A DNA stretch of 12,624 bases from Candidatus Hydrogenedentota bacterium (GCA_046583315.1 JAYGCN010000220.1:1-12624); one strand, 5' to 3'. Positions 1 through 12,624 are shown, numbered from the stretch's first letter. The notes: generated by a model from the letters alone, not told the origin. A program made the numbers and translations.

Positions 1-1512
1 CCAGGCAATTTGGAGTTGGCGCATCACGCTGTTGTGTATATCGTTGATCGCCAGAGGGCCTTGGACATGCAAGCCGCGGATTACCTGACTCCCGGAGTTG
101 ACGACGGCTGGGATTCTTATGGCGGTAGCGGTGTTGGCGGCTTCGTTCTCCAAGGGTGGGCTCCCGGGGCGAATTCAGTCCAGCTGTTAAATGAAGGGCT
201 CGGCGTCGCACTTCGTGCCGATCAAGCGATCGTTCTTCAGATGCACTATAACAATGTAAACGGACCGTCCATGAGTGATCGTACGAAAATCGGACTCAAA
301 TTGTCGTCTGATCCGAATATTCTTCTCGTCAGAAACACCATCCCTACTGTCCTGCCGGGATGGAGCTCGCCAGCTATAGAGGGGCCGGCGCTTGATCGCA
401 ATGGACCGTGCACGGCCGATGTTATAGGTCCGGGTCCGTGTTTCGGACCGGGCTGTGGTGATCAACTTCCAGGCGAAACCAATGTCTATGAAATGACGAT
501 TAATGTTCCGTCCGACACCCATCTCGTTTCGGTTTTCCCTCATATGCACCAGTTAGGTGACAAGTTCGTTGTGAGCGCCACACTACCGGATTCTACAGTG
601 GTTCCCATCATTCGATTGGATGAATGGGACTTTGATTGGCAACTTAGCTATAACTTCAAGAAACCGATCGCTCTTCCCGCGGGAAGTGTAGTCACTGTTA
701 CTGGAACGTATTTTAACGCGACTTCCGAGCCGGTTTGTGGAGGCTTATTCAGTTACGAATCGATGCTCACCTTCGGCAACTCGATCACGATCGACTCGGA
801 GGGTATTCCCACACCACGTGATTCCACGCCACCAAGAGTATTGAGCGTGACCGCCGATGAAGTTGATTCAGGGTTAACGTTGGTGGTGACCTTCGACGAA
901 GAAATCGTATTACCACATTACCCGTCCGCCGTGGAGATTATCGGTTCCTCCGGTGGAATAGTAGCTCCTGATTCGATGACGGTTACGGGTGATTCGCTGA
1001 TTATCGAATATCTTGAAACGCCGCAAGGGTCTTCAAGCGACTATCAACTCCTTCTACGTGGCTTTTTCGGCATCAAGGATTCGAATGGTAACTTCCTGGA
1101 TGGAAATGCAAACGGTGTTGGGGGCGAGTTGATTGACGATTCTGTATACGCGTTCGAGTGGTCTACACGCTCCTCAGAAACATCGGAATCGGGTGATGGC
1201 GCGTGCTTCATCGCGACGGCAGCCTATGGTACACCGATGGCCGAAGAAATCAATACCTTGCGCGCAGTACGTGATACCTACATGCTTAACAATGTCGTCG
1301 GCACGGTGTTCGTAGACCTGTACTACCGCCTGAGTCCGCCGATAGCGAATAAGATATCCACGATCCCAGCCTTGGGAGCCGGGGTTCGGCTATTACTCAT
1401 CCCGATCTTACTTCTCGCCACAGTGCTTCTGACTTGGCCGATGCTTGTCCCGCTCTTCGTGACAGCAGCTCTGGGTGCTACGGTACTGTGCCGGCGGAGG
1501 CGCCATTCGTGA
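1..1512 (+). CDS. Copper type II (PHM/DBH-fold) monooxygenase-like protein with Ig-like domain and C-terminal CFI-box-CTERM sorting domain; 5'-partial
   Basis: The frame is open from base 1 (PGNLELAHH...), so the TTG at 10 is internal. CuH-type ligands HH (22-27) and QMHY (His 244-246); CuM-type ligands FPHMH (541-549) and Met 763-765; WDFDWQLSY motif. These are followed by a DSTPP...FDE...IKDSNGNFLDG Ig-like domain, then GACFIATAAYG...LR..RD...G..FV..YYRLSPPIA, a hydrophobic segment and a basic RRRRHS end. Colinear with the paralog at 9035-10948. Confidence 0.88.
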   Translation, partial: PGNLELAHHAVVYIVDRQRALDMQAADYLTPGVDDGWDSYGGSGVGGFVLQGWAPGANSVQLLNEGLGVALRADQAIVLQMHYNNVNGPSMSDRTKIGLKLSSDPNILLVRNTIPTVLPGWSSPAIEGPALDRNGPCTADVIGPGPCFGPGCGDQLPGETNVYEMTINVPSDTHLVSVFPHMHQLGDKFVVSATLPDSTVVPIIRLDEWDFDWQLSYNFKKPIALPAGSVVTVTGTYFNATSEPVCGGLFSYESMLTFGNSITIDSEGIPTPRDSTPPRVLSVTADEVDSGLTLVVTFDEEIVLPHYPSAVEIIGSSGGIVAPDSMTVTGDSLIIEYLETPQGSSSDYQLLLRGFFGIKDSNGNFLDGNANGVGGELIDDSVYAFEWSTRSSETSESGDGACFIATAAYGTPMAEEINTLRAVRDTYMLNNVVGTVFVDLYYRLSPPIANKISTIPALGAGVRLLLIPILLLATVLLTWPMLVPLFVTAALGATVLCRRRRHS

Positions 1513-1728
1513 GTATTTCGCCAGATATAACGTATCCTGGAGCTACAGGAGGTCTAGTCTTTCGTAGGTGTTAATCAGATCACGGTCTCGTGCTGGTCAG
1601 CGGGGTCCAATGTCAAACGGTGTCAGCTTCTGTGCGAATCTTTTGAATCGCTATTTAGCGCTGTGCATCGACATTCTCCGCCAACGCCATGCATAGATAA
1701 TCAATCGCGGGCTTGGTGTAAATGCTTG

Positions 1729-3363
1729 CTATTTTTCTTCTACGTGATTCAGACGGAGTTGCACGATGCCTCCGTGTCGTACACGGTAGCCGATAAAGCT
1801 AAGCCCTTCCCATCTGACTACTTCGGGTGCTGTAGATTCGAGGAATCCAGCGACGTTTTCTGCACTGTGCCATTCACCGTCTTGGGTGCCGTTAAGTTTA
1901 AAGTACATTAGTCTGATGGCGTCGCTGGGCGTGCCATCGGGAATTTCCAGCCAAACCGTTTTTGTGTTTTCGAAAACTTGCTGGGGATGAATGCGCAAGG
2001 GTTCACGGATGCCTTCTTGAAGCTGTTGGATGTCGCTCGTTTCGTAGGTCAACGTTTCCGTTTCGGAAACTCCGGCTCTTGATGGAGATACCATGAATTG
2101 ATACTCCGCCGTCCGAAAATTCTCGTTCCCCGCGGCTACGGTGATTATCTCTTCGCCATCGGGCCATAAATTTGGTGATGAGACGAATACCCAGCCATCG
2201 GTCTTCGCCGCGTTGAGTTCGAACCAGGTGACCACGACAGACGATACAAGCGCATCAGGAAGTTTCACCCAAATATCCTTCCAATCGATCGCGTCGGTAG
2301 CACGTAACCGAATCGCGATGGTCTGATCTGCCCTTAGCGGTCGTACTCCGTTCTCGATCATTTCATACGGCATAACCTCTTCAAAGATTGCGTCCATGGG
2401 CGCAGGCGCGTGGAATCCATGGAATCCACTTGTGGGTTTCGCGGTACCGCTGTCAACGGATGTGTAGTGGCTATCCAACGTGCTCGAATTTGAAGTATAG
2501 GTGTACGATGTCGATTTCCGTTCGTCGGCCATGCCGCCGACGCCGATCGATACGATGCCCGAATATGCTTTAAGGAACATAGCGGTCGTAATTGTTGGTT
2601 TATCCGAGGTCTGCCCGGTAAGCAACCAAATCGTACCCGAACCCGTTACAGCCGCGATTCCTTCACCCACTGTGTCAAAGGGGGATGCCAGACTCCCTTC
2701 TTCACCACTGTTTCCGTGTTCAAATTGAACATATATTTCGTTGAGTTTGGCAACATGGACTGCCCTGGTTACTTCGATAGCAGGGTTACCAGCAGTGTCG
2801 GAGACGTTGTACCTGACGGTGTAATCTCCTGCAGCCACAGGATTCGACGGCAGGCCGGTAACCGCGATGCTCGACGTCAAATTTCCATCCACGTCGTCCG
2901 TTGCGGTGGCACCGGCGTCTATGTACGTACCTCCCACGGCAAGGGTAATCGATGGACTTCCTGTCAATGTGATCACGGGAGGTACCGAGTCCACATTCCC
3001 TTGAACAGTTACCGTGCCTTTCATGCCAATAAACGCATGCGGTTCGCATACGAAATAGTATAAACCGGGCGAGGTAAAGGTAAACATGTAGGTGCTCACT
3101 GCGCCAACCGGACCCGAACGAAAGCCGACCCCGTTCCAGCTTTCGTCGGCTGGGCCATTCGTTTCAACGACATTGTGGGCCGGCTGTAGATTGGTCCACG
3201 TTACTGAGTCGCCGACATTGATGACGACATCCGACGGACTGAAAGACGCGGAGAATGATTGGATATTGATATTCGCAGCGTAGGCATTCATGGCCAACGT
3301 ACACAACGAAGCAAATAGACAGATTGTCAGAACATTTTTAGGGACGGGTATCATTTTTTTCAC
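1729..3363 (-). CDS. Exported multidomain plastocyanin/azurin-family (type-1 copper) protein with DUF5011-type Ig-like domain, shared V.IG module and an uncharacterised C-terminal domain
   Basis: 544 aa. Signal peptide ending AYA-A; FSPSDVVINVGDSVTWTN..AHNV; ligand loop CEPHAFIGM (His 3175-3177, Cys 3046-3048, His 3037-3039, Met 3022-3024). DSVPPVITLTG...YIDAGATATDDVDG...YTVRYNVSDTAGN...VTRAVHV is the typical DUF5011/HYR-like Ig pattern. The start could be GTG 3363 or ATG 3354. Confidence 0.88.
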   Translation of the reverse strand: MKKMIPVPKNVLTICLFASLCTLAMNAYAANINIQSFSASFSPSDVVINVGDSVTWTNLQPAHNVVETNGPADESWNGVGFRSGPVGAVSTYMFTFTSPGLYYFVCEPHAFIGMKGTVTVQGNVDSVPPVITLTGSPSITLAVGGTYIDAGATATDDVDGNLTSSIAVTGLPSNPVAAGDYTVRYNVSDTAGNPAIEVTRAVHVAKLNEIYVQFEHGNSGEEGSLASPFDTVGEGIAAVTGSGTIWLLTGQTSDKPTITTAMFLKAYSGIVSIGVGGMADERKSTSYTYTSNSSTLDSHYTSVDSGTAKPTSGFHGFHAPAPMDAIFEEVMPYEMIENGVRPLRADQTIAIRLRATDAIDWKDIWVKLPDALVSSVVVTWFELNAAKTDGWVFVSSPNLWPDGEEIITVAAGNENFRTAEYQFMVSPSRAGVSETETLTYETSDIQQLQEGIREPLRIHPQQVFENTKTVWLEIPDGTPSDAIRLMYFKLNGTQDGEWHSAENVAGFLESTAPEVVRWEGLSFIGYRVRHGGIVQLRLNHVEEK

Positions 3364-3449
3364 GAGATAATCCGATTCTGTTTAATTTTTCGCATGTTAG
3401 CCGTAAATTAGTTACGATTTTCGGGTAAGGCACTCCCTGCAACGCGTGT

Positions 3450-4103
3450 TCACTTTTTCGCTGTTGCCGAATCGGCCTCCTGAATCGCGGACGCGATGTG
3501 TGCGACACGATTGGGGTTCGGATGAGCGATCACCTTTACAGCCTGCGTGAAGTCAAAACCCGTTTTCTCCCCGGATTCCAAGGTATATTTCTTGGGGTTC
3601 CACGGGGGGGCTTCTTCATTGTGGCACGCGATACAGGTTGCGTTGTTCGGCATTAATATGTTTTTGCCTAGATCCAGCTTAGCATCTTTGTCCATGTGCA
3701 AAATTCTTGCATCTTTCAAATGCGCAGAAGCCGGTCCGTGGCACGATCCGCATTGTACGCCATCTTCCATTCGAAGCTCTTTTGGCATAGAACGGGTCAC
3801 ACTATCGTAGCCAGTGACATGACACTTCAGACATTCGGGTGATTCGTAAGGGGGGACGGTGATGCCCAGGTCGTCGGCAAATCGTTGCGCCTTCTTCCCG
3901 TACAACGTGTCTAACGCATTGGCATGGGCGTGGGATTTCCATGAGGTATACTGGCCCCCCTTTTCGGGAACATTGTGGCAGAGTTTGCACTTTCGACTGT
4001 CGACGTAACTCTTCGCCGGTTCCTGCGCAATCGCGTGACCAAGCGACAAGAAAATTACAAACGATAATGGGAATGCTAAATTGCTGGCTAATGTTCGTTT
4101 CAT
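3450..4103 (-). CDS. Periplasmic tetraheme cytochrome c, cytochrome c554 family
   Basis: 217 aa. Signal peptide ending AIA-QE; four CxxCH motifs (CKLCH, CLKCH, CGSCH, CIACH); family pattern YV..RKC..CH....QY..W...AHA.A...L...CL.CH.TG...GVQC.SCHGP.S.H. Confidence 0.9.
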   Translation of the reverse strand: MKRTLASNLAFPLSFVIFLSLGHAIAQEPAKSYVDSRKCKLCHNVPEKGGQYTSWKSHAHANALDTLYGKKAQRFADDLGITVPPYESPECLKCHVTGYDSVTRSMPKELRMEDGVQCGSCHGPASAHLKDARILHMDKDAKLDLGKNILMPNNATCIACHNEEAPPWNPKKYTLESGEKTGFDFTQAVKVIAHPNPNRVAHIASAIQEADSATAKK

Positions 4104-4134
4104 CGATTAACTACTGCCTCATACTTAAAAATAG

Positions 4135-4163
4135 AGTATATTGTCTCGCCGTAAAAAAGTCAA
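4135..4163 (-). promoter_or_regulatory. Sigma70-type promoter for the c554 (and possibly cupredoxin) transcript
   Basis: The minus strand reads TTGACT (4163-4158), a 17-bp spacer, then TATACT (4140-4135). Each hexamer matches consensus at 5/6, and the -10 lies about 30 bp upstream of ATG 4103. Confidence 0.72.
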
Positions 4164-4252
4164 CTAGGCTCCATGGCCTACGGTGCCAGGTTCGGCGAAT
4201 TCGCCTTTTATCGGCTCAGCGTGCTAGATTGACGTCTGCGAAAGGTGCGATT

Positions 4253-4290
4253 TTGATGCGTAACAACATTTATTCGAATGCTGATATAAA
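4253..4290 (+). promoter_or_regulatory. Putative FNR/CRP-family box plus extended -10 upstream of the decaheme-porin-cytochrome operon
   Basis: TTGAT-GCGT-AACAA (4253-4266) matches 9 of 10 positions of TTGAT-N4-ATCAA. TG-A-TATAAA at 4282-4290 resembles an extended -10 and has no good -35. Confidence 0.45.
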
Positions 4291-4315
4291 TTTTGCTGTA
4301 CGTTTGGAAATCTGT

Positions 4316-6439
4316 ATGGAGGTATGCAGCGTTTCGCGGGGCATACTAAGACAGCGTCCGACTGTGCACGCTTCGCTGATACTGATTGTGATGCTCGGGA
4401 CCGTTCTTTCAGGTTGTTCGAGTGGCGGCGGTGACAGCGACGACACTACTACGTCTTTTTCCTTCTTGTCGGAAAATTCCAATCTTAACGTTCTACTTCA
4501 ACAGGTGCGCATCGCTGATGACCTTAGACCGGCGATCAAATTTATGCTGTTTGACGATGCGGGCAATACTATTTCTCTGGACGAAATTACGCATATCGAG
4601 TTCATGATGGCCGCGCTGGAGCGGGTGTCAGTCGGCACCCCTTTTGAGTATAGGAGCTATTCCACCGTTCTGGAGGATCCTGACGGAGATCCTGCATCCG
4701 GTGACGAGGCCATTCAGGCGGCCTATGACCCCGCGGGGATAAGTGGTCTAACTCAAAACAGTGAAGGCGTTTTCACCTTTAAATTCGCAAAGGCGTTACC
4801 CGGCGACTATGACCGTAGCGCGACCCATCAGTTGGGTGCAGAAATTGTGCGTTTCTCCGTTTCCGATCAACGTACCTATATGGCAAATCTGGCAATGCCC
4901 TTTCGTCCCGATGGCCAACCCGTTGCGGCCGTGCGTGACATGGTATCTCAAGAGGCGTGTAACTCGTGCCACACGCAACTCACAGCGAATGAAGGTTTAC
5001 GCACGGAGATTCAACTCTGTATTCTCTGCCACAGTTCTCAAAGTACAGATGCGGAGACTGGGAATTCGCTTCACTTTGCGGAGCTTATCCACAAGATACA
5101 CCGAGGCTCAATGCTCCCGAGTCTTTTGATTGACAGCGAGCCCTATCAGATCCATGGTATTGCGAATGCGTTGGTCGACTATTCGACCGTCGACTACCCG
5201 CAAGACATCCGAAACTGTGTGAGTTGCCATACCGATGCGCCCCAGGCTCATTTTTACGAGACCGCCCCGACGATGGTGGGATGCCAGTCGTGCCATGATC
5301 GCGTATGGTACGGAACATTTTCGACGAAACCTGCCAGTTTCTCGATGCACCCCGGCGGCGTTCAGGAGAATAATAGTCAGTGCGCACTGTGCCATTCGCC
5401 TGAGGGAAATGGTCAAGCGCCTGTTGCCCTCTCTCACCTGTTTCCGGTAGACACTCCGGGCGCTCCAGGGCTCGCGCTCGCAATCACTGGTATCGTCACA
5501 TCCCCTGGAACGGAAGGGACGCGCGTTGAAATCGCCTTCACGGCTCGCGACAAAGATGATGCATCCATTCCCAATCTTTCAACGATCGAGCGGGTTTCGG
5601 CGACGATTGCATGGCCTGTCGCTGAATACCAATCGACGGTTCACGAAGTGATCGCGAGCAGCGATGGACCTTCTGAGGGAACACTAATCACACACGGTGA
5701 CGGTTCGTATAATTTTACGTTTGCCGCGGAACTTCCTGTTACGGAGGAGAATGCGTTTGTGGTTTCTCTGGAAGGCCGTCGATCATTCCAGCATCGCGGT
5801 GTAACTTACAAGCAGGGCGCTACCCAGAGTGAGCCAATCTCCTTCTCGCCCGAAGCTACGATCCCGTCGTTCCGTCGCAGCATTGTGCTCGATCAAAAAT
5901 GCAACGTGTGTCATTTGGAGCTTCGAGCGCACGACGAGCTCCGGGTCGGAGTCGACAATTGCGTCATGTGCCACAACCCGAATTCAAGTGATGAATCGAG
6001 CCGACCTTTCGAACTTCTCCCCCCGGAAACCATCAACTTCAAAGAAATGATTCATCGCATACACACGGGAACCGACTTGGCTCATTCGTATTCCATATTC
6101 GACGCACTCGGCGCGGAGCACGATTATACCTCGACTCGTTTTTCGGGCGATCGACGCGATTGTTTAATGTGTCATGTCGAGGAGTCGATGACCCTACCGC
6201 TTCCGCCCGAAGCGCTATCAACGGTGATCACCGAGAACGGGGGAACGACGGTCGTGAGCGAATCGTTTCCCATGGGAAGCGCGTGCACGTCGTGCCACAG
6301 CACTGACACGTCCATTCAACATGCATTGCTCTATACGGACAACGCTACGGGAGCGGAGAGTTGCGCGACGTGCCACGGAGAAAGTAGTGAACTCTCCGTT
6401 ACAGCTGTTCACCAATTCGATCTGTTCGATGGGAATTAG
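4316..6439 (+). CDS. mtrC: OmcA/MtrC-family decaheme outer-surface c-type cytochrome lipoprotein
   Basis: Ten CxxCH motifs in a 5+5 arrangement, each block preceded by a heme-free beta domain (R..V....C..CH..L....R.....C..CH; IH.IH.G; C..CH x3). Lipobox LSG-C (Cys 4415-4417). I moved the start from the ORF-track 3941 to ATG 4316 (707 aa); GTG 4364 is an alternative. The symbol is a family-level assignment, not demonstrated orthology. Confidence 0.92.
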   Translation: MEVCSVSRGILRQRPTVHASLILIVMLGTVLSGCSSGGGDSDDTTTSFSFLSENSNLNVLLQQVRIADDLRPAIKFMLFDDAGNTISLDEITHIEFMMAALERVSVGTPFEYRSYSTVLEDPDGDPASGDEAIQAAYDPAGISGLTQNSEGVFTFKFAKALPGDYDRSATHQLGAEIVRFSVSDQRTYMANLAMPFRPDGQPVAAVRDMVSQEACNSCHTQLTANEGLRTEIQLCILCHSSQSTDAETGNSLHFAELIHKIHRGSMLPSLLIDSEPYQIHGIANALVDYSTVDYPQDIRNCVSCHTDAPQAHFYETAPTMVGCQSCHDRVWYGTFSTKPASFSMHPGGVQENNSQCALCHSPEGNGQAPVALSHLFPVDTPGAPGLALAITGIVTSPGTEGTRVEIAFTARDKDDASIPNLSTIERVSATIAWPVAEYQSTVHEVIASSDGPSEGTLITHGDGSYNFTFAAELPVTEENAFVVSLEGRRSFQHRGVTYKQGATQSEPISFSPEATIPSFRRSIVLDQKCNVCHLELRAHDELRVGVDNCVMCHNPNSSDESSRPFELLPPETINFKEMIHRIHTGTDLAHSYSIFDALGAEHDYTSTRFSGDRRDCLMCHVEESMTLPLPPEALSTVITENGGTTVVSESFPMGSACTSCHSTDTSIQHALLYTDNATGAESCATCHGESSELSVTAVHQFDLFDGN

Positions 6440-6452
6440 GGATTTGCCCGGA

Positions 6453-7838
6453 ATGATTTTGCGACCATATGACGCGTTCACAAAATCAACATACACACGT
6501 ACGTTCGTCGCGTTACTTTTGCTGCTATCCGCCTCGCGATTTGTCGTCGCTCAGGAGTCCGAGCCTGTCCCACCAGAAACCCGGTGGCTTTCGGGAGAAT
6601 TGGAACTCGGCCTGGACGCGATCCGTTCGAAATCTGAGGGCGACCTGGAACTGGATCAGGTGTTGCGTCTCCGGGCGGACCCCGCGAAGCATGACAATCT
6701 TCATTTTCGTTCTACCATTTGGACCACCCAAGATCTGGACGGACGGGAATCGTCGACGAGTGCCTTCCGAGGTCTTAATGATACGTCCGACACTTTTGTG
6801 AACACCCGGGTTCTTTCCCTCTACATGGAGTATGAAGGGGAACACGACGATGTGCGCTTGCGCCTTGGGCGTCAACGCATATCCGGAGGCGTAGCGTATA
6901 ATCGGATCGACGGCGCCTATTTCAGGATGCGGCACAATAAGTGGGAGTACTATGCCTTCTTGGGAGCGCGCGCATCGGTCTATGAAAACAGTCATGAGGA
7001 TATATCGAGCGGTGCCGGCGCTGCGTGGAGACCGTTACCAAGGACGCGCGTGGCTCTTGATTTATTCTACGGAGACGACGATAGGCGCAACTATGACGCC
7101 GACGATGTCTCGGCGGCGTTGACGTCGGTATCGGTTCGTCATTCTCTGAATCCTTATCACAATGTTTTCGGACGCGCAATCTGGTACGAGGAAGACCTGG
7201 ACGAATTCAAGGTGATGGCGCAGGGCGTATTTCGGGAAGATGCGTTTCTGTACACCGTGGCCTATCGAAAACGGGTTAGCACACTGGCGGAACGTCCGAC
7301 GGATTTCCCTCAGTTCTATCATGTTGTAGGAGAACTGAACGGGTATGAAGATGTGCAGGCGATAGTTGGTTTCCCAATCGGTGAGCACGTCGAATTGGGC
7401 TTCGAGGCACAGGTGCACGACGCGAGTGACGATATGCTGAACACAGGGAATCGCGATTTTCAGCGCTACGGGATATCTCTGGATATCACCGATATTGCGA
7501 AACACTATGGCCTGCGCGTGATCGCCGAGTTATGGGACGCGTCCGACGCGGAAAGCGAAAAGACGATTTCAGGTGAAGTCTCGCGTCGATGGGAGCGCAC
7601 GAAAGCCTCAATGGGCGTCGATTATGATCGTTTTCAGGATCGGATCATCCAGTATGATCTCCAAGATCAGGATTCTTTTTTCATCCAATCCGCAAGTGAC
7701 ATATATACGTTTTATCTAAGGGTCAAGCACGATATCAATGAACAGCACAGCGTTCGAATTCGGGGATCGGTAGAAGACGACGATACGGATGAGGCCCCTT
7801 ATTGGCGGCTTCGTTCTGTGTATACCTATAGATTTTAA
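6453..7838 (+). CDS. Outer-membrane beta-barrel porin of a porin-cytochrome conduit
   Basis: 461 aa from ATG 6453, 13 bp after the decaheme stop. Signal peptide ending VVA-QE; alternating amphipathic strands (LRLGRQ....G....RIDGAYF, YYAFLG, YGISLDI, FYLRVKHDI); C-terminal YTYRF beta-signal; no Cys; located between two multiheme cytochrome genes. Confidence 0.85.
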   Translation: MILRPYDAFTKSTYTRTFVALLLLLSASRFVVAQESEPVPPETRWLSGELELGLDAIRSKSEGDLELDQVLRLRADPAKHDNLHFRSTIWTTQDLDGRESSTSAFRGLNDTSDTFVNTRVLSLYMEYEGEHDDVRLRLGRQRISGGVAYNRIDGAYFRMRHNKWEYYAFLGARASVYENSHEDISSGAGAAWRPLPRTRVALDLFYGDDDRRNYDADDVSAALTSVSVRHSLNPYHNVFGRAIWYEEDLDEFKVMAQGVFREDAFLYTVAYRKRVSTLAERPTDFPQFYHVVGELNGYEDVQAIVGFPIGEHVELGFEAQVHDASDDMLNTGNRDFQRYGISLDITDIAKHYGLRVIAELWDASDAESEKTISGEVSRRWERTKASMGVDYDRFQDRIIQYDLQDQDSFFIQSASDIYTFYLRVKHDINEQHSVRIRGSVEDDDTDEAPYWRLRSVYTYRF

Positions 7839-7859
7839 CCAACGTGAGGCTTTGTTTCC

Positions 7860-8981
7860 ATGAGTGACAAACGACGACGATTGAAGGTGTTTGCGACGGC
7901 GGGAGTGTTGTACTCTCTGCTGACAGCGTGCGCGACTTGGCAATCCTTCGTACGCGAAGTCAAGCGTGCTCCCGAGCCCAATCGGGGTGTAATCGCCAAC
8001 CACGACATTCACGCGGCTGACGGACTGGATTGTTCGGATTGCCACACCGTTTCCACTGGTGAACGGGTGTCAATTGTCGACCACGACATCTGTTCGGTGT
8101 GCCACGATATTCCTGACAACAGTCTGACGTCCCCGCTCACGTATGTTGACGACGTATCCTGCAAAATGTGTCACACACGCGATGATTATTCCATTACGCC
8201 TCGGCGAAATTTCATCACCGATGAGATACGATTCGATCATCAGGTACATGTTACGGCGAAGGTCTCGTGCACGGAATGTCATGAGAGTCCAGATCGACCA
8301 CGCACGTACGACGATATGCTCATGACACAGTGTATGAATTGTCATGAACAAACCAGTCATGCGTTCTCAAGTATTGCGAAGACGACTGCAAAAGCAGAAG
8401 ATTTCCACGGAAATGAGTGTACCGTATGCCATCGCGAGCTAACCAAAGAGACGATTCCTGAATATCGTCACGGCCAGCGTATCGCCCATGATTCAACTCT
8501 CGCGTGGAAAAAATTGCACGGACATGAATCATATGTGGATGCCACATATTGCGCTCAATGTCATGTCGAAGAAGAAGACTGTATGACCTGCCATCGCATT
8601 ATGAAACCAGATAATCACACCTTGGCGTGGAATCGAAGACTACATGGGGTTCACGCTGGCTGGGATAGCCAGAGCTGTAGCGTATGTCACGAAGAAGATT
8701 CATGCATGAAATGCCACAGTCACACAGAGCCCGTGTCACACACCGGTAATTTCGGCGCTCCCCGAAACAATCACTGTGTTCAATGCCATTTTCCGGCCGA
8801 AACCGAAATCGGCTGCGCTGTATGCCACGAAAGTATCGACCATCGCTCGGCTCCAACTACTCCCCACGATGACGATCTCAATTTTCCGGGCAACTGCGCC
8901 CTATGCCATCCTGGTGGGATACCGGGCGCGGTGCCACATCGTAACAACCTATCCACAGACTGCCGTACATGTCATCAATAG
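7860..8981 (+). CDS. 14-heme c-type cytochrome lipoprotein (two c7/c3-like triheme modules plus paired-CxxCH repeats)
   Basis: 373 aa with 14 CxxCH motifs counted (CSDCH, CSVCH, CKMCH, CTECH, CMNCH, CTVCH, CAQCH, CMTCH, CSVCH, CMKCH, CVQCH, CAVCH, CALCH, CRTCH). Basic N-region plus lipobox LTA-C (Cys24). GAGG at 7846-7849; start is 21 bp after the porin stop. Confidence 0.92.
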   Translation: MSDKRRRLKVFATAGVLYSLLTACATWQSFVREVKRAPEPNRGVIANHDIHAADGLDCSDCHTVSTGERVSIVDHDICSVCHDIPDNSLTSPLTYVDDVSCKMCHTRDDYSITPRRNFITDEIRFDHQVHVTAKVSCTECHESPDRPRTYDDMLMTQCMNCHEQTSHAFSSIAKTTAKAEDFHGNECTVCHRELTKETIPEYRHGQRIAHDSTLAWKKLHGHESYVDATYCAQCHVEEEDCMTCHRIMKPDNHTLAWNRRLHGVHAGWDSQSCSVCHEEDSCMKCHSHTEPVSHTGNFGAPRNNHCVQCHFPAETEIGCAVCHESIDHRSAPTTPHDDDLNFPGNCALCHPGGIPGAVPHRNNLSTDCRTCHQ

Positions 8982-9034
8982 CGGTGGCTATCTCGTAGCG
9001 GGCGGTACCCTGTCACGAATCGCCTAGGTGGACT

Positions 9035-10948
9035 CTAGGGTCCGGCGACGCCAATGCGAACAGTACCGCCTTCGGCAACAAGCGTGACATCCTGGTCTAT
9101 CGTAACAATAGCGCTGCTATCCTCGCTGAGAATTCGCAACGAGCCACCGGCTTGCACACCGGCCAGCCCGCCTTCAATCGTCGAGAAGGGTTCAGCAACT
9201 GTTCCGAACTCAGGACCGGACCACATAAAGTTATGAGTAACGTCATCGGCAATTTCACTGCCGGTACCGTCTCCGTCCCCGTCCAGGAAATTCCCTTCGA
9301 TATCTTTAATGCCGAAGAAGCCGTGAAGAAGAAGATCGTGACTCACCGCCGTAGGAGTCGTCAAGTCCACCCACGCGTTGGTGGGCTTCGGATCGAGATA
9401 CGCTGGATCATAATCGACGACAAGGGTATTCCCGGCTACGACAAGAGAGAACGGCGCTACGACACGCCCGCCTGGGCCAACGATCTGGAAGGCCGAAGGA
9501 TAATGCGGATCAGCCATATCCTCGTCGAATTCGACCAGTAGCGCCAACGACGAAGGTCCTGCAATTTCATCGGTTTGAACGTACTGAGGCGGCGTCGAGT
9601 CACGTGGCGTTGGAACGCCCTCCGAGTCCGTTGTTAAGGACAAGCCGAGAGTCAACATCTCATCGTTGCTCGCGAGGCCGCCGATAACATTACTTAGGGT
9701 CGTGTTTGTGTAAGTACCCTGGACGTGAAGAGTCGAACCGGCCGATAGTGCAATCGGTTGCTTAAAGTTGTAGCTCAATTGCCAGTCAAAGTCCCACTTG
9801 TCCAAATCAATAATAGGAATGTCGGGGCCACCACCCGGCAGTGTAGCAGTCACGTTAAATTGGTCGCCGATGAGGTGCATGTGGGGGAACACCGACACCA
9901 GATGAATGTCTTCACCGATGGGAACGGACATGTAATACGTATTGGTCTCACTAGGCCACATCGGACCATACCCACCGTCCCGGGTCGCTGCCGGACCCGC
10001 GATAGCTGGGACTGATATACCGGGGAAATCTGTCGGGAGCTGGTTGATGACCAGTAGAAGCTCTGGGTCATACGGATCGGGTGCCAAAACCAGGCCGACC
10101 GACGTTTGATCCGTCTCGGGGGTCGCGCCGAAGTTATGATAATGCATCTGGTTAATAATTACTTTGTCGGGTGGGAGGGGAATACCCAGTTTATCGTTGA
10201 GTAGGGCTACGGAATTGGAACCGGGCGCCCATCCCTGCAAGACTGTGGCGCCGGATATTCCGCTGCCTCCGAAACAGTCATAGCCATCGTTGGGGATCAT
10301 GGGTGTCACCGTGTCTGCGGCCTGGGCGGCCAGTGCGGCCGCCCCGTCGGCGATATACACGACGGCGTGATGCGCGATTTCGAGGTTACTCGGCTTCACT
10401 TCAAAGCCGATGATCACTTCGTAATTGTCCAGAGAACCCGCCACTTGCGGCTCCACGATAAAACATCGGTAGCGGTCAGCTCCGGGATCGTGGGTCCAGG
10501 CCACCGGCATCTCAAGGACAACATCGGGCGGACCTTGAAACCAGCCGTCATCAAATACAAGCGCGGGCGGCGCATCCGCCGGGTCGCCCTCCGGTGCGCC
10601 CGCGTCGACCCAAGTGGCAATCAGAACTATCTGTTCCTGCGTCAGCTCGCTATTTGGAAGAAATCCCTGGCCCGCGCCGTAGCCCTGCGTCTCTTCAGGC
10701 GACGCATTCCAGGGAGGCATGAGCCCCAGTTGAACGTAAGCCTTGATTGAGGCACCCGATGAGGCGACCGTGGCGTAATCCGCCCAATCTCCATTGCCGA
10801 TTCCACCGGAATGATGGCATTGAATACATTTCGATTGCATCAGGCGAATGATCTGGCCGTGATAGGTAGGCTCAGCTGCATAAGCGCCGCCTCCCAGAGT
10901 GACAAAACTAAGAACCAAAAATGAGGCGAAGCTGATACCGTGTTTCAT
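9035..10948 (-). CDS. Exported monoheme cytochrome c / copper type II (PHM/DBH-fold) monooxygenase fusion with Ig-like domain and C-terminal V.IG module
   Basis: 637 aa from ATG 10948 (AGGGAG upstream; signal peptide ending AYA-AE). PTY...I..L....CIQCH...GIG...MPPW...W...GAPEG cytochrome c domain; YRCF, AHHAVVY, QMHYHN, FPHMH, WDFDWQLSY and DEM copper-monooxygenase motifs; DSTPP...LDGDGDGTG Ig-like domain. Confidence 0.9.
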   Translation of the reverse strand: MKHGISFASFLVLSFVTLGGGAYAAEPTYHGQIIRLMQSKCIQCHHSGGIGNGDWADYATVASSGASIKAYVQLGLMPPWNASPEETQGYGAGQGFLPNSELTQEQIVLIATWVDAGAPEGDPADAPPALVFDDGWFQGPPDVVLEMPVAWTHDPGADRYRCFIVEPQVAGSLDNYEVIIGFEVKPSNLEIAHHAVVYIADGAAALAAQAADTVTPMIPNDGYDCFGGSGISGATVLQGWAPGSNSVALLNDKLGIPLPPDKVIINQMHYHNFGATPETDQTSVGLVLAPDPYDPELLLVINQLPTDFPGISVPAIAGPAATRDGGYGPMWPSETNTYYMSVPIGEDIHLVSVFPHMHLIGDQFNVTATLPGGGPDIPIIDLDKWDFDWQLSYNFKQPIALSAGSTLHVQGTYTNTTLSNVIGGLASNDEMLTLGLSLTTDSEGVPTPRDSTPPQYVQTDEIAGPSSLALLVEFDEDMADPHYPSAFQIVGPGGRVVAPFSLVVAGNTLVVDYDPAYLDPKPTNAWVDLTTPTAVSHDLLLHGFFGIKDIEGNFLDGDGDGTGSEIADDVTHNFMWSGPEFGTVAEPFSTIEGGLAGVQAGGSLRILSEDSSAIVTIDQDVTLVAEGGTVRIGVAGP

Positions 10949-11092
10949 TTCTATCATTTCTCCCTGTTCGTTTTCTGCTGGTGACGGCGATGAGAGCCCT
11001 GTTACTGAAACGTGACACAACTGTTTTGCAGCACGAACAATCCCGATTTCCAGTATATAGGAAAGCATTGCCGATACGGTTTTCTCCTATTG

Positions 11093-11121
11093 ACAGTACC
11101 TTCAGCGTCACATTTTGTCAA
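11093..11121 (-). promoter_or_regulatory. Possible sigma70 promoter for the cytochrome c-monooxygenase gene
   Basis: Minus strand TTGACA (11121-11116), a 17-bp spacer, then TACTGT (11098-11093), about 145 bp upstream of ATG 10948. The -35 is perfect and the -10 is weak (TAnnnT only). Confidence 0.35.
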
Positions 11122-11261
11122 GAGAATAACTAATTCACAGGGTACTCACATTCAGTTTTTCGTGAAACTGTGTATCAGAATTATACGTAAGTGGTGATAC
11201 GATTAGGGTTAAAAGCACCGACGGTGTAAACGAGGGTGTTTCTAGTATAGCCGGCGACTTT

Positions 11262-11280
11262 TGTCAATATTGAATTGACA
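11262..11280. repeat. Inverted repeat TGTCAAT-N5-ATTGACA with overlapping palindrome TCAATATTGA; candidate operator
   Basis: Perfect 7-5-7 dyad at 11262-11280 and a perfect 10-bp palindrome at 11264-11273, within the 692-bp AT-richer intergenic region. Confidence 0.45.
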
Positions 11281-11640
11281 CGCCGTTTTAGACTTTTGGC
11301 CAAACTTGAGTTTTGCTCACAACACAACCGAACTCGTCTCAAAAATCAATTTATACGCTTAGTTCCATGTGTTTTCGGCGTTAGGCTGAGTTTTTTGACC
11401 CTCCGCGCATTTCATGATGATATTGAACATAACTAGTTCTGAAAATGGCGTGCGAGAAACTGAAAAGCAAGGAAACGAGGTGAGAATTGGTTCGTAACGT
11501 TTCTTAACACCGCCATCACTTTTCCATTTCGGCCTGTGCGTTTGGTTCCGTGCATGATTCGGCCCGTTGGCCCTGGGCGTGTTGCCCACCGGCGGGAGTT
11601 CAGCGCATCAACATAGACAGCCAAAATCGATCACGCTGAG

Positions 11641-12624
11641 CTACTCGCTAACACCGATGGCGACCGTGCCAACTCCAGGGTTTGAGTTGCCAAGTGTAAG
11701 TGGCTTCGAAATGATGAGGGGGCTCTCAATCGTGTTGTAGGAACCGGGTGCGAGATTGATCGTGAAGCCATTGTCTGCTGCGGTGATAGCCTCGTCGATG
11801 CCTTTCAGCGGTGCTTCGGGCGTTCCGAGACCGGGCACCGTCGCTGCATCGTCAACGTGGATTGGCGAGACGAAAGGGAGCGGCACGGTATCAACAAACA
11901 CCGGCGTGTGATCGCTGAACGTGGCTTCAAATTCGGCGTCGGATTCGCCATAGTGGGAAGGACGGATGACAAAAGCCAGTGCGGTGGATATACTCAAATA
12001 GGCATCGTTTGTCGCGTATATGTGATCCAATTCAGCGCCGAAACCCACGGCAGTCGTCTTTGTCGTGTTCTCTTTGGCGATATAATTTAGTGGAGTATTT
12101 GCCAAAAGTTCGTCGTGGGGAGATCCTGAATTGGGGTGGGCATTGAAGTCTCCCACTAAATAAATGGAGGGCGTGAAGGTGAGATCGGCATAGCGTTCAT
12201 CGATGTACTGCTTTAACGCGGCACCCGCGTAGGCGCGTATGAATTCGTTACTGCTCCCGAAGTAGAAATGGGTGGATATCAGACAGAAGGGCTGAGACTT
12301 GCCGTCAACCGCCCGGAAAATCGCGAGTTCCGGAAGACTACTTTCGTGTCCAAAGGGCGCGCCATTGGGGCCGAATTCCGTTTGCCAATTTGGGAAATCG
12401 TCGTAGAAGGAACTGTACGGTGGATAACGAAGTTGTTCGAGCGTGACGTACTCCAGCAGCTCCACTTTGGTGGAGTCATAAATAAATCCGTTGTTCCAAT
12501 CTCCAATAGCAGTCTGCCAGCCCAGCGCGCTCACCACAGTGTCCAGAGCAGGGCGGGATCTTGGAAGGACTTGAGCACTCTCGTAGGTAATTTCCTGAAT
12601 GGCGACAACGGCCGGGTCAAAAGT
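11641..12624 (-). CDS. Endonuclease/exonuclease/phosphatase (EEP, DNase I-like) family protein with C-terminal V.IG module; 5'-partial
   Basis: The frame is open to the window edge (TFDPAVVAIQEITYE...LDTVVSALGW). EEP catalytic motifs AIQE, ISTH, VGDFNA, LDHIY and FSDHTPVF are all present. Confidence 0.9.
   Translation of the reverse strand, partial: TFDPAVVAIQEITYESAQVLPRSRPALDTVVSALGWQTAIGDWNNGFIYDSTKVELLEYVTLEQLRYPPYSSFYDDFPNWQTEFGPNGAPFGHESSLPELAIFRAVDGKSQPFCLISTHFYFGSSNEFIRAYAGAALKQYIDERYADLTFTPSIYLVGDFNAHPNSGSPHDELLANTPLNYIAKENTTKTTAVGFGAELDHIYATNDAYLSISTALAFVIRPSHYGESDAEFEATFSDHTPVFVDTVPLPFVSPIHVDDAATVPGLGTPEAPLKGIDEAITAADNGFTINLAPGSYNTIESPLIISKPLTLGNSNPGVGTVAIGVSE

Follow-up and report, generated by a model that had tools for sequence, protein, structure and literature searches.

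A putative porin-cytochrome conduit of Hydrogenedentota and the exported copper proteins beside it

We analysed a stretch of 12,624 nucleotides (the window) from a Candidatus Hydrogenedentota bacterium (GCA_046583315.1 JAYGCN010000220.1:1-12624), which is the entire contig C347 of a 4.65-Mb genome, G000, with a completeness of 96.7% and a contamination of 5.4%. Its central genes encode an outer-membrane porin and three multiheme cytochromes, and around them lie a cupredoxin and two copper proteins of the PHM/DBH fold, PHM1 and PHM2. We consider the central genes (3450-8981) to form an outward respiratory electron conduit and the flanking PHMs and cupredoxin to be separate exported proteins, a reading to which we assign a probability of about 0.6. 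A first-pass annotation of this DNA had proposed that a porin-cytochrome conduit could feed the copper monooxygenases, through the cupredoxin or a fused heme c; the conduit itself is supported by its conservation in relatives, and the coupling to the copper proteins is not.

Conduit genes and their conservation

The cluster begins, on the reverse strand, with a tetraheme cytochrome of the c554 fold (3450..4103, four CxxCH motifs), a predicted periplasmic shuttle that matches PF13435 with 66 bits and the PDB entry 1bvb with an E-value of 1.2e-9. Against NF043010, the equivalog model of the Nitrosomonas c554 CycA, it scores 47 bits, under the cut-off of 400; judged by these profiles it belongs to the same Pfam family as CycA and is not its equivalog. 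Transcribed divergently from it, on the forward strand, are a decaheme lipoprotein of the MtrC/OmcA family (4316..6439), the porin (6453..7838) and a 14-heme c7/c3-like cytochrome with a lipobox (7860..8981). The decaheme protein, predicted to be the terminal cytochrome at the cell surface, has the lipobox LSG-C and ten CxxCH motifs in two blocks of five, scores 378 bits against TIGR03507 (cut-off 209) and has matches to MtrF, OmcA and MtrC; no other open reading frame of G000 has ten CxxCH motifs. It contains no non-heme cysteine after the lipobox and hence no CX8C disulfide. Since only one of 29 decahemes of the phylum has at least two cysteines in that domain, this absence is a rule of the phylum and does not mark the window variant. 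The 14-heme protein (14 CxxCH) shows no match to TIGR03508 (MtrA-type), and its lipobox, LTA-C24, makes it a predicted lipoprotein rather than a free periplasmic protein. Atlas look-alikes of the 14-heme protein come from Planctomycetota, Myxococcota and Gemmatimonadota and those of the porin from Planctomycetota and Nitrospirota, a lead to possible kin of both beyond Hydrogenedentota.

The porin was modelled with AF2 from 29 sequences (pLDDT 84) as an outer-membrane beta-barrel of 22 predicted strands in 428 residues, with no plug domain. In a fold search the model matched outer-membrane barrels, the best with a Z of 18.6. Several TonB-receptor barrels ranked above MtrB, which gave a Z of 16.0 (rmsd 6.5, 354 aligned residues) and may be a distant relative. 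No Geobacter-type conduit porin was among the matches listed, an absence that excludes nothing. The window porin matches no Pfam or NCBIfam family, nor does any of the 29 members score above a cut-off in either database; the NCBIfam porin models matched none of them at E <= 0.1, and PF11854, which does not match the window porin, gave weak matches in two of the 29 (best E 0.0015). Two loop insertions present in long-loop porins are missing from the window protein, which groups with 31 other short-loop porins in one clade (32 of the 136 porins, support 1.0). Structure prediction of the porin together with the 14-heme protein gave a complex score of 0.59, the best of three controls reaching 0.00, with at least 73% of contacts shared between runs and a partner pLDDT of at least 58. 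The mark for such scores is reached by 116 of 157 solved pairs and by 2 of 215 mismatched ones, and scores that reach it but do not exceed 0.60 comprise 18 of the 157 solved pairs and both mismatches, so that the prediction lends weak support to binding of the 14-heme protein by the porin.

Among 135 Hydrogenedentota genomes, the porin was found in 60, G000 included. We compared 61 distinct porin loci besides the window (919 kb), all of the long-loop type and none of them contributing to the short-loop clade of 32; several of the partner misses counted here fall at contig ends. The most constant partner of the porin is the 14-heme protein, kept at 56 of the 61 loci, followed by a 6-8-heme protein encoded upstream of the porin (55/61). 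Homologs of the c554 protein occur at 31 loci, and those of the decaheme protein at 30, as does a 5-heme NapC-like protein of about 490 residues. Two of these 5-heme proteins were scanned and score 34-35 bits against PF03264 (NapC/NirT, cut-off 24), a match that points outward, as for CymA (PMC8805035). The usual layout in relatives is 6-8-heme, porin, 14-heme and c554, with the decaheme and NapC-like genes transcribed the opposite way; in the window the decaheme gene stands in the slot normally held by the 6-8-heme gene. Profiles built from 41 6-8-heme and 30 NapC-like proteins found no ortholog of either in G000. As far as gene content and order can tell, the window cluster is a trimmed and rearranged form of the phylum's conduit and the tetraheme protein a genuine accessory of it, and the pattern of conservation likely reflects a porin-cytochrome conduit family of Hydrogenedentota.

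The 6-8-heme proteins show a weak similarity to MtrA/DmsE (62-76 bits on TIGR03508, cut-off 192). Some conduit loci (among L047, L084, L089, L103, L104 and L122) add an 11-heme or a 19-heme protein, and at some of these a 21-heme protein replaces the 6-8-heme one; the 11-heme protein of L047 has a cytochrome b-like C-terminal part.

Compared with MtrCAB of Shewanella (PDB 6R2Q), the window shares a decaheme lipoprotein of the MtrC/OmcA family, a barrel and a second multiheme cytochrome, and the NapC/NirT gene at 30 of the 61 relatives' loci is CymA-like. It differs in lacking MtrA, whose place is taken by the 14-heme c7/c3-like lipoprotein, in a barrel of 22 predicted strands compared with 26 in MtrB (PMC12133095), in a decaheme protein without the CX8C pair of Shewanella MtrC, and in the order decaheme-porin-14-heme; the window cluster is not a member of MtrCAB. 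It does agree with the working definition of a porin-cytochrome (Pcc) cluster, a porin of at least 14 strands beside a multiheme gene (PMC7399161). Like the Geobacter Pcc clusters (OmbB-OmaB-OmcB, ExtABCD, ExtEFG) and those of peat Acidobacteriota and Verrucomicrobiota (10.64898/2026.05.27.727921), it is a conserved gene cluster in which multiheme cytochromes flank a porin that is not of the MtrB type. No NCBIfam or Pfam family could be assigned to its porin, which was compared with those of Geobacter (OmbB, ExtB, ExtE, ExtI) through family models. Unlike Pcc clusters, the window joins a Pcc-like core to an MtrC-type terminal cytochrome. Taken by its gene content, the cluster likely acts as a porin-cytochrome complex that would transfer electrons across the membrane.

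The layout of the window is supported by contigs of two metagenome runs. One 7,910-base contig of the independent run X2 covers positions 706-8624 with 54 changed letters, and one contig of run X1, possibly the source sample, covers 8295-11958; because these contigs bridge most of it, we take the layout to be real, and an assembly chimera is excluded, contigs from two runs crossing the gene junctions. Window DNA occurs in metagenome runs of marine or seawater origin, one of them hydrothermal; no RNA sample is among the runs listed, which carries no weight for or against expression. A recent foreign insertion of the conduit finds no support in composition: the conduit genes have a GC content of 0.51-0.54 (GC3 0.51-0.57) and the flanking genes one of 0.52-0.56 (GC3 0.55-0.60). 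Motifs, profiles and folds confirm the genes that the first-pass annotation had named (decaheme, porin and 14-heme genes, divergent tetraheme gene, type-1 copper protein and two PHM-fold paralogs), and the export signals that it had reported are visible by eye at the N-termini of all complete genes. A promoter and terminator scan of the window stayed at chance level (10 vs 8.6 and 9 vs 9.8), and an Rfam scan gave nothing credible.

Copper proteins and their relation to the conduit

PHM1 (1..1512, forward strand) has its 5' part off the contig, and PHM2 (9035..10948, reverse strand) consists of a signal peptide, a monoheme cytochrome c domain, the dicopper core, a beta-rich domain and a tail domain. 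The two are 51-52% identical, and 59% over the core. Animal PHM has six copper ligands. Five had been counted in the window proteins at first; the ligands are indeed present, and each protein has six, five His and one Met: H8, H9, H82, H181, H183 and M255 in PHM1, and H193, H194, H269, H356, H358 and M431 in PHM2. All six (three His for CuH; two His and the Met for CuM) are invariant in 58 aligned homologs. The fused heme c that had been proposed is present in PHM2 (CIQCH), and in PHM1 the corresponding N-terminus lies beyond the contig. PHM2 scores 24.2 bits against PF03712 (cut-off 23); PHM1 reaches 18.9 bits, under that cut-off, and 82.8 bits against NF041770 (cut-off 40). PHM1 continues into a beta-rich middle domain and a C-terminal CFI-box-CTERM with hydrophobic helices, a domain on which we found no paper in the literature.

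A sequence search of the PDB with PHM2 returned nothing, and the protein was placed by fold search only. With the AF2 model of its core (58 sequences, pLDDT 87), PHM or DBH filled all rows listed to rank 31 (E 6.7e-12 to 1.2e-9), Foldseek giving E-values of 6.7e-12 and 8.9e-12 for PHM (PDB 1PHM, 1SDW) and DBH (4ZEL). The window PHMs share with these enzymes the HH...H / HxH...M ligand set and differ from them in an identity of 14-17%, in the fused N-terminal cytochrome c domain and in being bacterial. PHM2 by its model, and PHM1 by its identity over the core, are two-domain PHM-fold proteins and putative hydroxylases.

The PHMs belong to a populous family. G000 holds 39 heme-c/PHM loci (44 matches less four weak heme-domain matches, with two C299 pieces merged); in its 40 PHM-family rows, 37 have a CxxCH motif and 30 match the six-ligand pattern. 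Nine of the 13 other genomes of G000's family have 21-33 PHM matches, and among 8,000 candidates scored 1,171 homologs reached E <= 1e-10, some of them fused to redoxin domains. The family is large and apparently unstudied: we found no description of bacterial heme-c/PHM proteins in the literature, PMC2938197 and PMC12307469 yielded nothing on bacterial PHMs or on the window porin, and PHM is treated as widespread in eukaryotes (PMC8812541). The PHMs likely receive their electrons from common donors of the periplasm by way of their fused heme c, just as their paralogs must where the genome has no conduit.

The cupredoxin (1729..3363, reverse strand) is an exported protein with a plastocyanin-like type-1 copper domain (ligands H63, C106, H109 and M114), an Ig-like domain and a tail domain. 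It scores 52.6 bits against PF00127 and 59.9 bits against PF16403, and its best PDB matches are plastocyanins. Homologs occur in 4 of the 135 genomes, that is in three besides G000, of which two lack a porin match; in the third, the homologs lie on contigs other than that of the porin. The tail domain is common to PHM2, the cupredoxin, an endonuclease/exonuclease/phosphatase protein and a MauG-like protein on the adjoining contig C344, and is found in 25 open reading frames of G000, some by partial matches only. This shared domain indicates that the conduit sits in a run of exported proteins, and together with the absence of PHM and cupredoxin genes from other porin loci it favours the chance clustering of exported-protein genes that the first-pass annotation had itself offered as an alternative.

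The surroundings hold further genes of these types. The right end of the window overlaps C344 by 141 bases; at 11641-12624 of the window and L058:11109-12952 lies a gene of the MauG/CCP diheme type followed directly by that of the endonuclease/exonuclease/phosphatase. On C344 (L058:794-8348), five tightly packed genes on the same strand encode an alpha/beta hydrolase, a heme-c/PHM protein, a Vgb-lyase/SGL-like beta-propeller, a PQQ dehydrogenase (629 bits) and a second heme-c/PHM protein. The propeller lyase beside a PHM resembles the PHM and PAL pair of animal PAM, and the PQQ dehydrogenase could well donate electrons. We consider this cluster a better lead to the chemistry of the PHM family than the conduit. 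Between genes of the window (11232-11405) lies an AT-rich element, some 175 bases long and with no Rfam match. Its 15 aligned near-full-length copies in G000 are 67-81% identical to that of the window; they adjoin varied genes, three PHMs included, and the element is also found on contigs of relatives. On several contigs of G000, 11 of 26 AhpC/TSA matches contain a single in-frame TGA and are possibly selenocysteine redoxins.

We looked for the association of copper proteins and conduit from both sides. Neither a PHM nor a cupredoxin lies beside the porin at any of the 61 other loci, 29 of which have flanks (6.5 kb or more upstream, 4.4 kb or more downstream) long enough to reveal the layout of the window; the profiles used recover both window PHMs. 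A candidate at locus L116 was rejected, being a heme-domain-only match to a 1,058-residue protein. Conversely, 198 metagenomic PHM loci were confirmed, and the best 80 of them, which total 853 kb and include 41 of at least 10 kb, have no porin, decaheme, cupredoxin or protein with three or more heme motifs as a neighbour; 75 of the 81 PHMs in them have a CxxCH of their own. This metagenome scan, made for the PHM2 subfamily, returned distant family members only (26-36% identity) and therefore tests the family, not the subfamily. Across 60 relatives, counted by hand and including kin that are not independent and some incomplete genomes, the porin occurs in 27, a PHM match in 27 and both in 14, with about 12 expected, so that the two appear to occur about independently. 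Among the nine relatives with at least 21 PHM matches, eight have no porin match and one has a porin. The suggestion that the conduit powers surface hydroxylation thus runs counter to gene order in relatives, and the PHMs and cupredoxin probably lie next to the conduit without being served by it.

Electron flow and competing readings

If the conduit works outward, electrons would pass from the quinol pool through an inner-membrane oxidoreductase to the c554 protein, then to the 14-heme protein at or in the porin and to the decaheme protein at the surface, which would hand them to an acceptor outside the cell, for instance Fe/Mn oxide or oxidised organic matter, when little oxygen is available. 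The inner-membrane step would be taken, in about half of the relatives, by the co-located NapC/NirT-like protein in the role of CymA, which is the quinol step in the inner membrane of Shewanella (PMC8805035). Contig C334 of G000 carries a pentaheme gene beside that of a 1,120-residue Fe-S protein, a pair resembling the ActA/ActB proteins of alternative complex III; since G000 lacks both the NapC partner and the 6-8-heme lipoprotein, this complex may be the entry point, and the decaheme gene now occupies the place before the porin gene.

Several observations weigh against an outward conduit with independent neighbours. NapC/NirT was not found in G000 at a completeness of 96.7%, which makes the outward direction less certain; five matches to A-type oxidase subunit I (C262, C97, C329, C342, C351), some of which may be contamination, indicate oxygen respiration and keep an inward direction possible. 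With PHM genes placed independently, flanking on both sides would be rare: it occurred in none of 200,000 random 7.5-kb blocks. The window is the only locus of the short-loop clade that was read, and the synteny test rests on porins 26-41% identical to that of the window. The PHM2 subfamily is present in two of the 135 genomes, G000 and G007, both with decaheme and porin (a third match, at 192 bits vs more than 700, was left uncounted). Finally, on one 839-base contig from X2, which shares about 88% identity with the window, the end of the 14-heme gene is followed after 394 bases by a PHM2-type start in the same orientation. Part of this can be set in context. Flanking on one side is seen in 3.7% of the random 7.5-kb blocks, two PHMs fall within 0.8% of random 12.6-kb windows, and on four of the seven other two-copy contigs the copies lie within 4 kb; as PHM1 and PHM2 are sister paralogs of a distinct subfamily (support 1.0), this local clustering makes the two-sided flanking one local event, not two. 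The 839-base contig stems from a near relative, in which a shared gene order is expected by descent. G007 has its PHM2-subfamily gene on a 3-kb contig of its own, and none lies within 7.4 kb upstream or 10 kb downstream of its porin.

Inward flow, in which the decaheme would oxidise extracellular Fe(II), reduced minerals or reduced organic matter and c554 would pass the electrons to the A-type oxidases, with the PHMs unrelated, appears to us unlikely, if the most serious of the rivals. It would suit the missing NapC/NirT partner, the five oxidase matches and the marine metagenomes from which the DNA comes, and the direction of extracellular electron transfer does vary by organism (PMC8805035). 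The decaheme is also without the CX8C pair, which in Shewanella MtrC keeps down the formation of peroxide in air (PMC9973256), but that absence is general in the phylum. Moreover, the systems from which terminal cytochromes of the MtrC type are known are reducing ones (PMC8805035, PMC12133095), and acidobacterial mtrCAB clusters likewise have no quinol oxidoreductase nearby (PMC8805035). A cluster that decayed after losing the 6-8-heme and NapC-like genes, and that is no longer a working conduit, is a poorer candidate still. The 6-8-heme gene stands at nearly all other loci and has no ortholog in G000, and 11 of the 13 other genomes of its family have no porin match; yet the four genes have uninterrupted reading frames in which each heme motif is preserved, the short-loop clade of 32, reaching down to 47% identity, implies long retention, and the weak prediction that the porin binds the 14-heme protein does without the 6-8-heme protein.

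The conduit of the marine short-loop clade might instead have been recruited to feed surface-anchored PHM monooxygenases through the cupredoxin or the fused heme c, which we regard as improbable. Sister PHMs of one subfamily do flank the cluster, their tails are typical of exported proteins, a close relative's contig repeats a PHM2-type gene after the 14-heme gene, though in the other orientation, and the same two family genomes have the PHM2 subfamily and the decaheme, G000 and G007 being the only 2 of the family's 14 genomes in which an MtrC-type decaheme exceeds the cut-off. The nearest precedent by analogy is the CjX183 domain of Cbp2D, a c-type cytochrome that reduces extracellular bacterial LPMOs in vitro (PMC8981238); there, however, the copper monooxygenase is a mononuclear LPMO, the donor is a small soluble monoheme domain and no porin-cytochrome conduit is mentioned. 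On the other side stands the absence of the pairing at all 61 porin loci and all 80 PHM loci. The window PHMs belong to transcription units of their own, pointing towards the operon or away from it, two genomes have cupredoxin homologs without a porin match, PHM2 has its own heme and so needs no cupredoxin, and the C-terminal hydrophobic helices of PHM1 are compatible with a periplasm-facing location. Indirect evidence comes from contig sizes: six short-loop porins and decahemes pair by an equal longest contig (9855, 8953, 12120, 7467, 115213 and 13564), and none of these sizes is among the 120 listed of the 1,171 PHM matches (231-737 residues searched), in which PHM2-type proteins rank first. 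We give equally little credence to a fuller version, in which a marine oxygen-respiring branch trimmed an ancestral anaerobic conduit, with loss of the NapC partner, the 6-8-heme lipoprotein and two porin loops and a move of the decaheme into the operon, and now uses it to wire the surface heme-c/PHM hydroxylases of one subfamily. On the sequence data, coupling is unsupported for the long-loop clade and retains a slim chance for the short-loop clade. An outward conduit beside unrelated exported copper proteins is the reading we prefer.

Novelty and significance

In the literature, mostly open-access, we found no description of this conduit cluster, although supplements of screens like PMC11475568, whose main text does not name Hydrogenedentota, may list it. 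Divergent porin-multiheme clusters have already been reported in other uncultured phyla, Hydrogenedentota being unmentioned in the main text of that report (10.64898/2026.05.27.727921), and in Hydrogenedentota it is Cyc2, not a cluster of the window type, that has been reported (PMC9769843). As its porin belongs to no Pfam or NCBIfam family, the conduit would be missed by screens based on MtrB. The heme-c/PHM family is a separate question, and the window does not reveal its electron source.

If the cluster works as proposed, a large part of a little-studied phylum would be able to pass electrons to or from its environment. The marine short-loop variant, which lacks NapC, would be a natural test of which parts the conduit needs and of how it is rewired in an oxygen-respiring cell.

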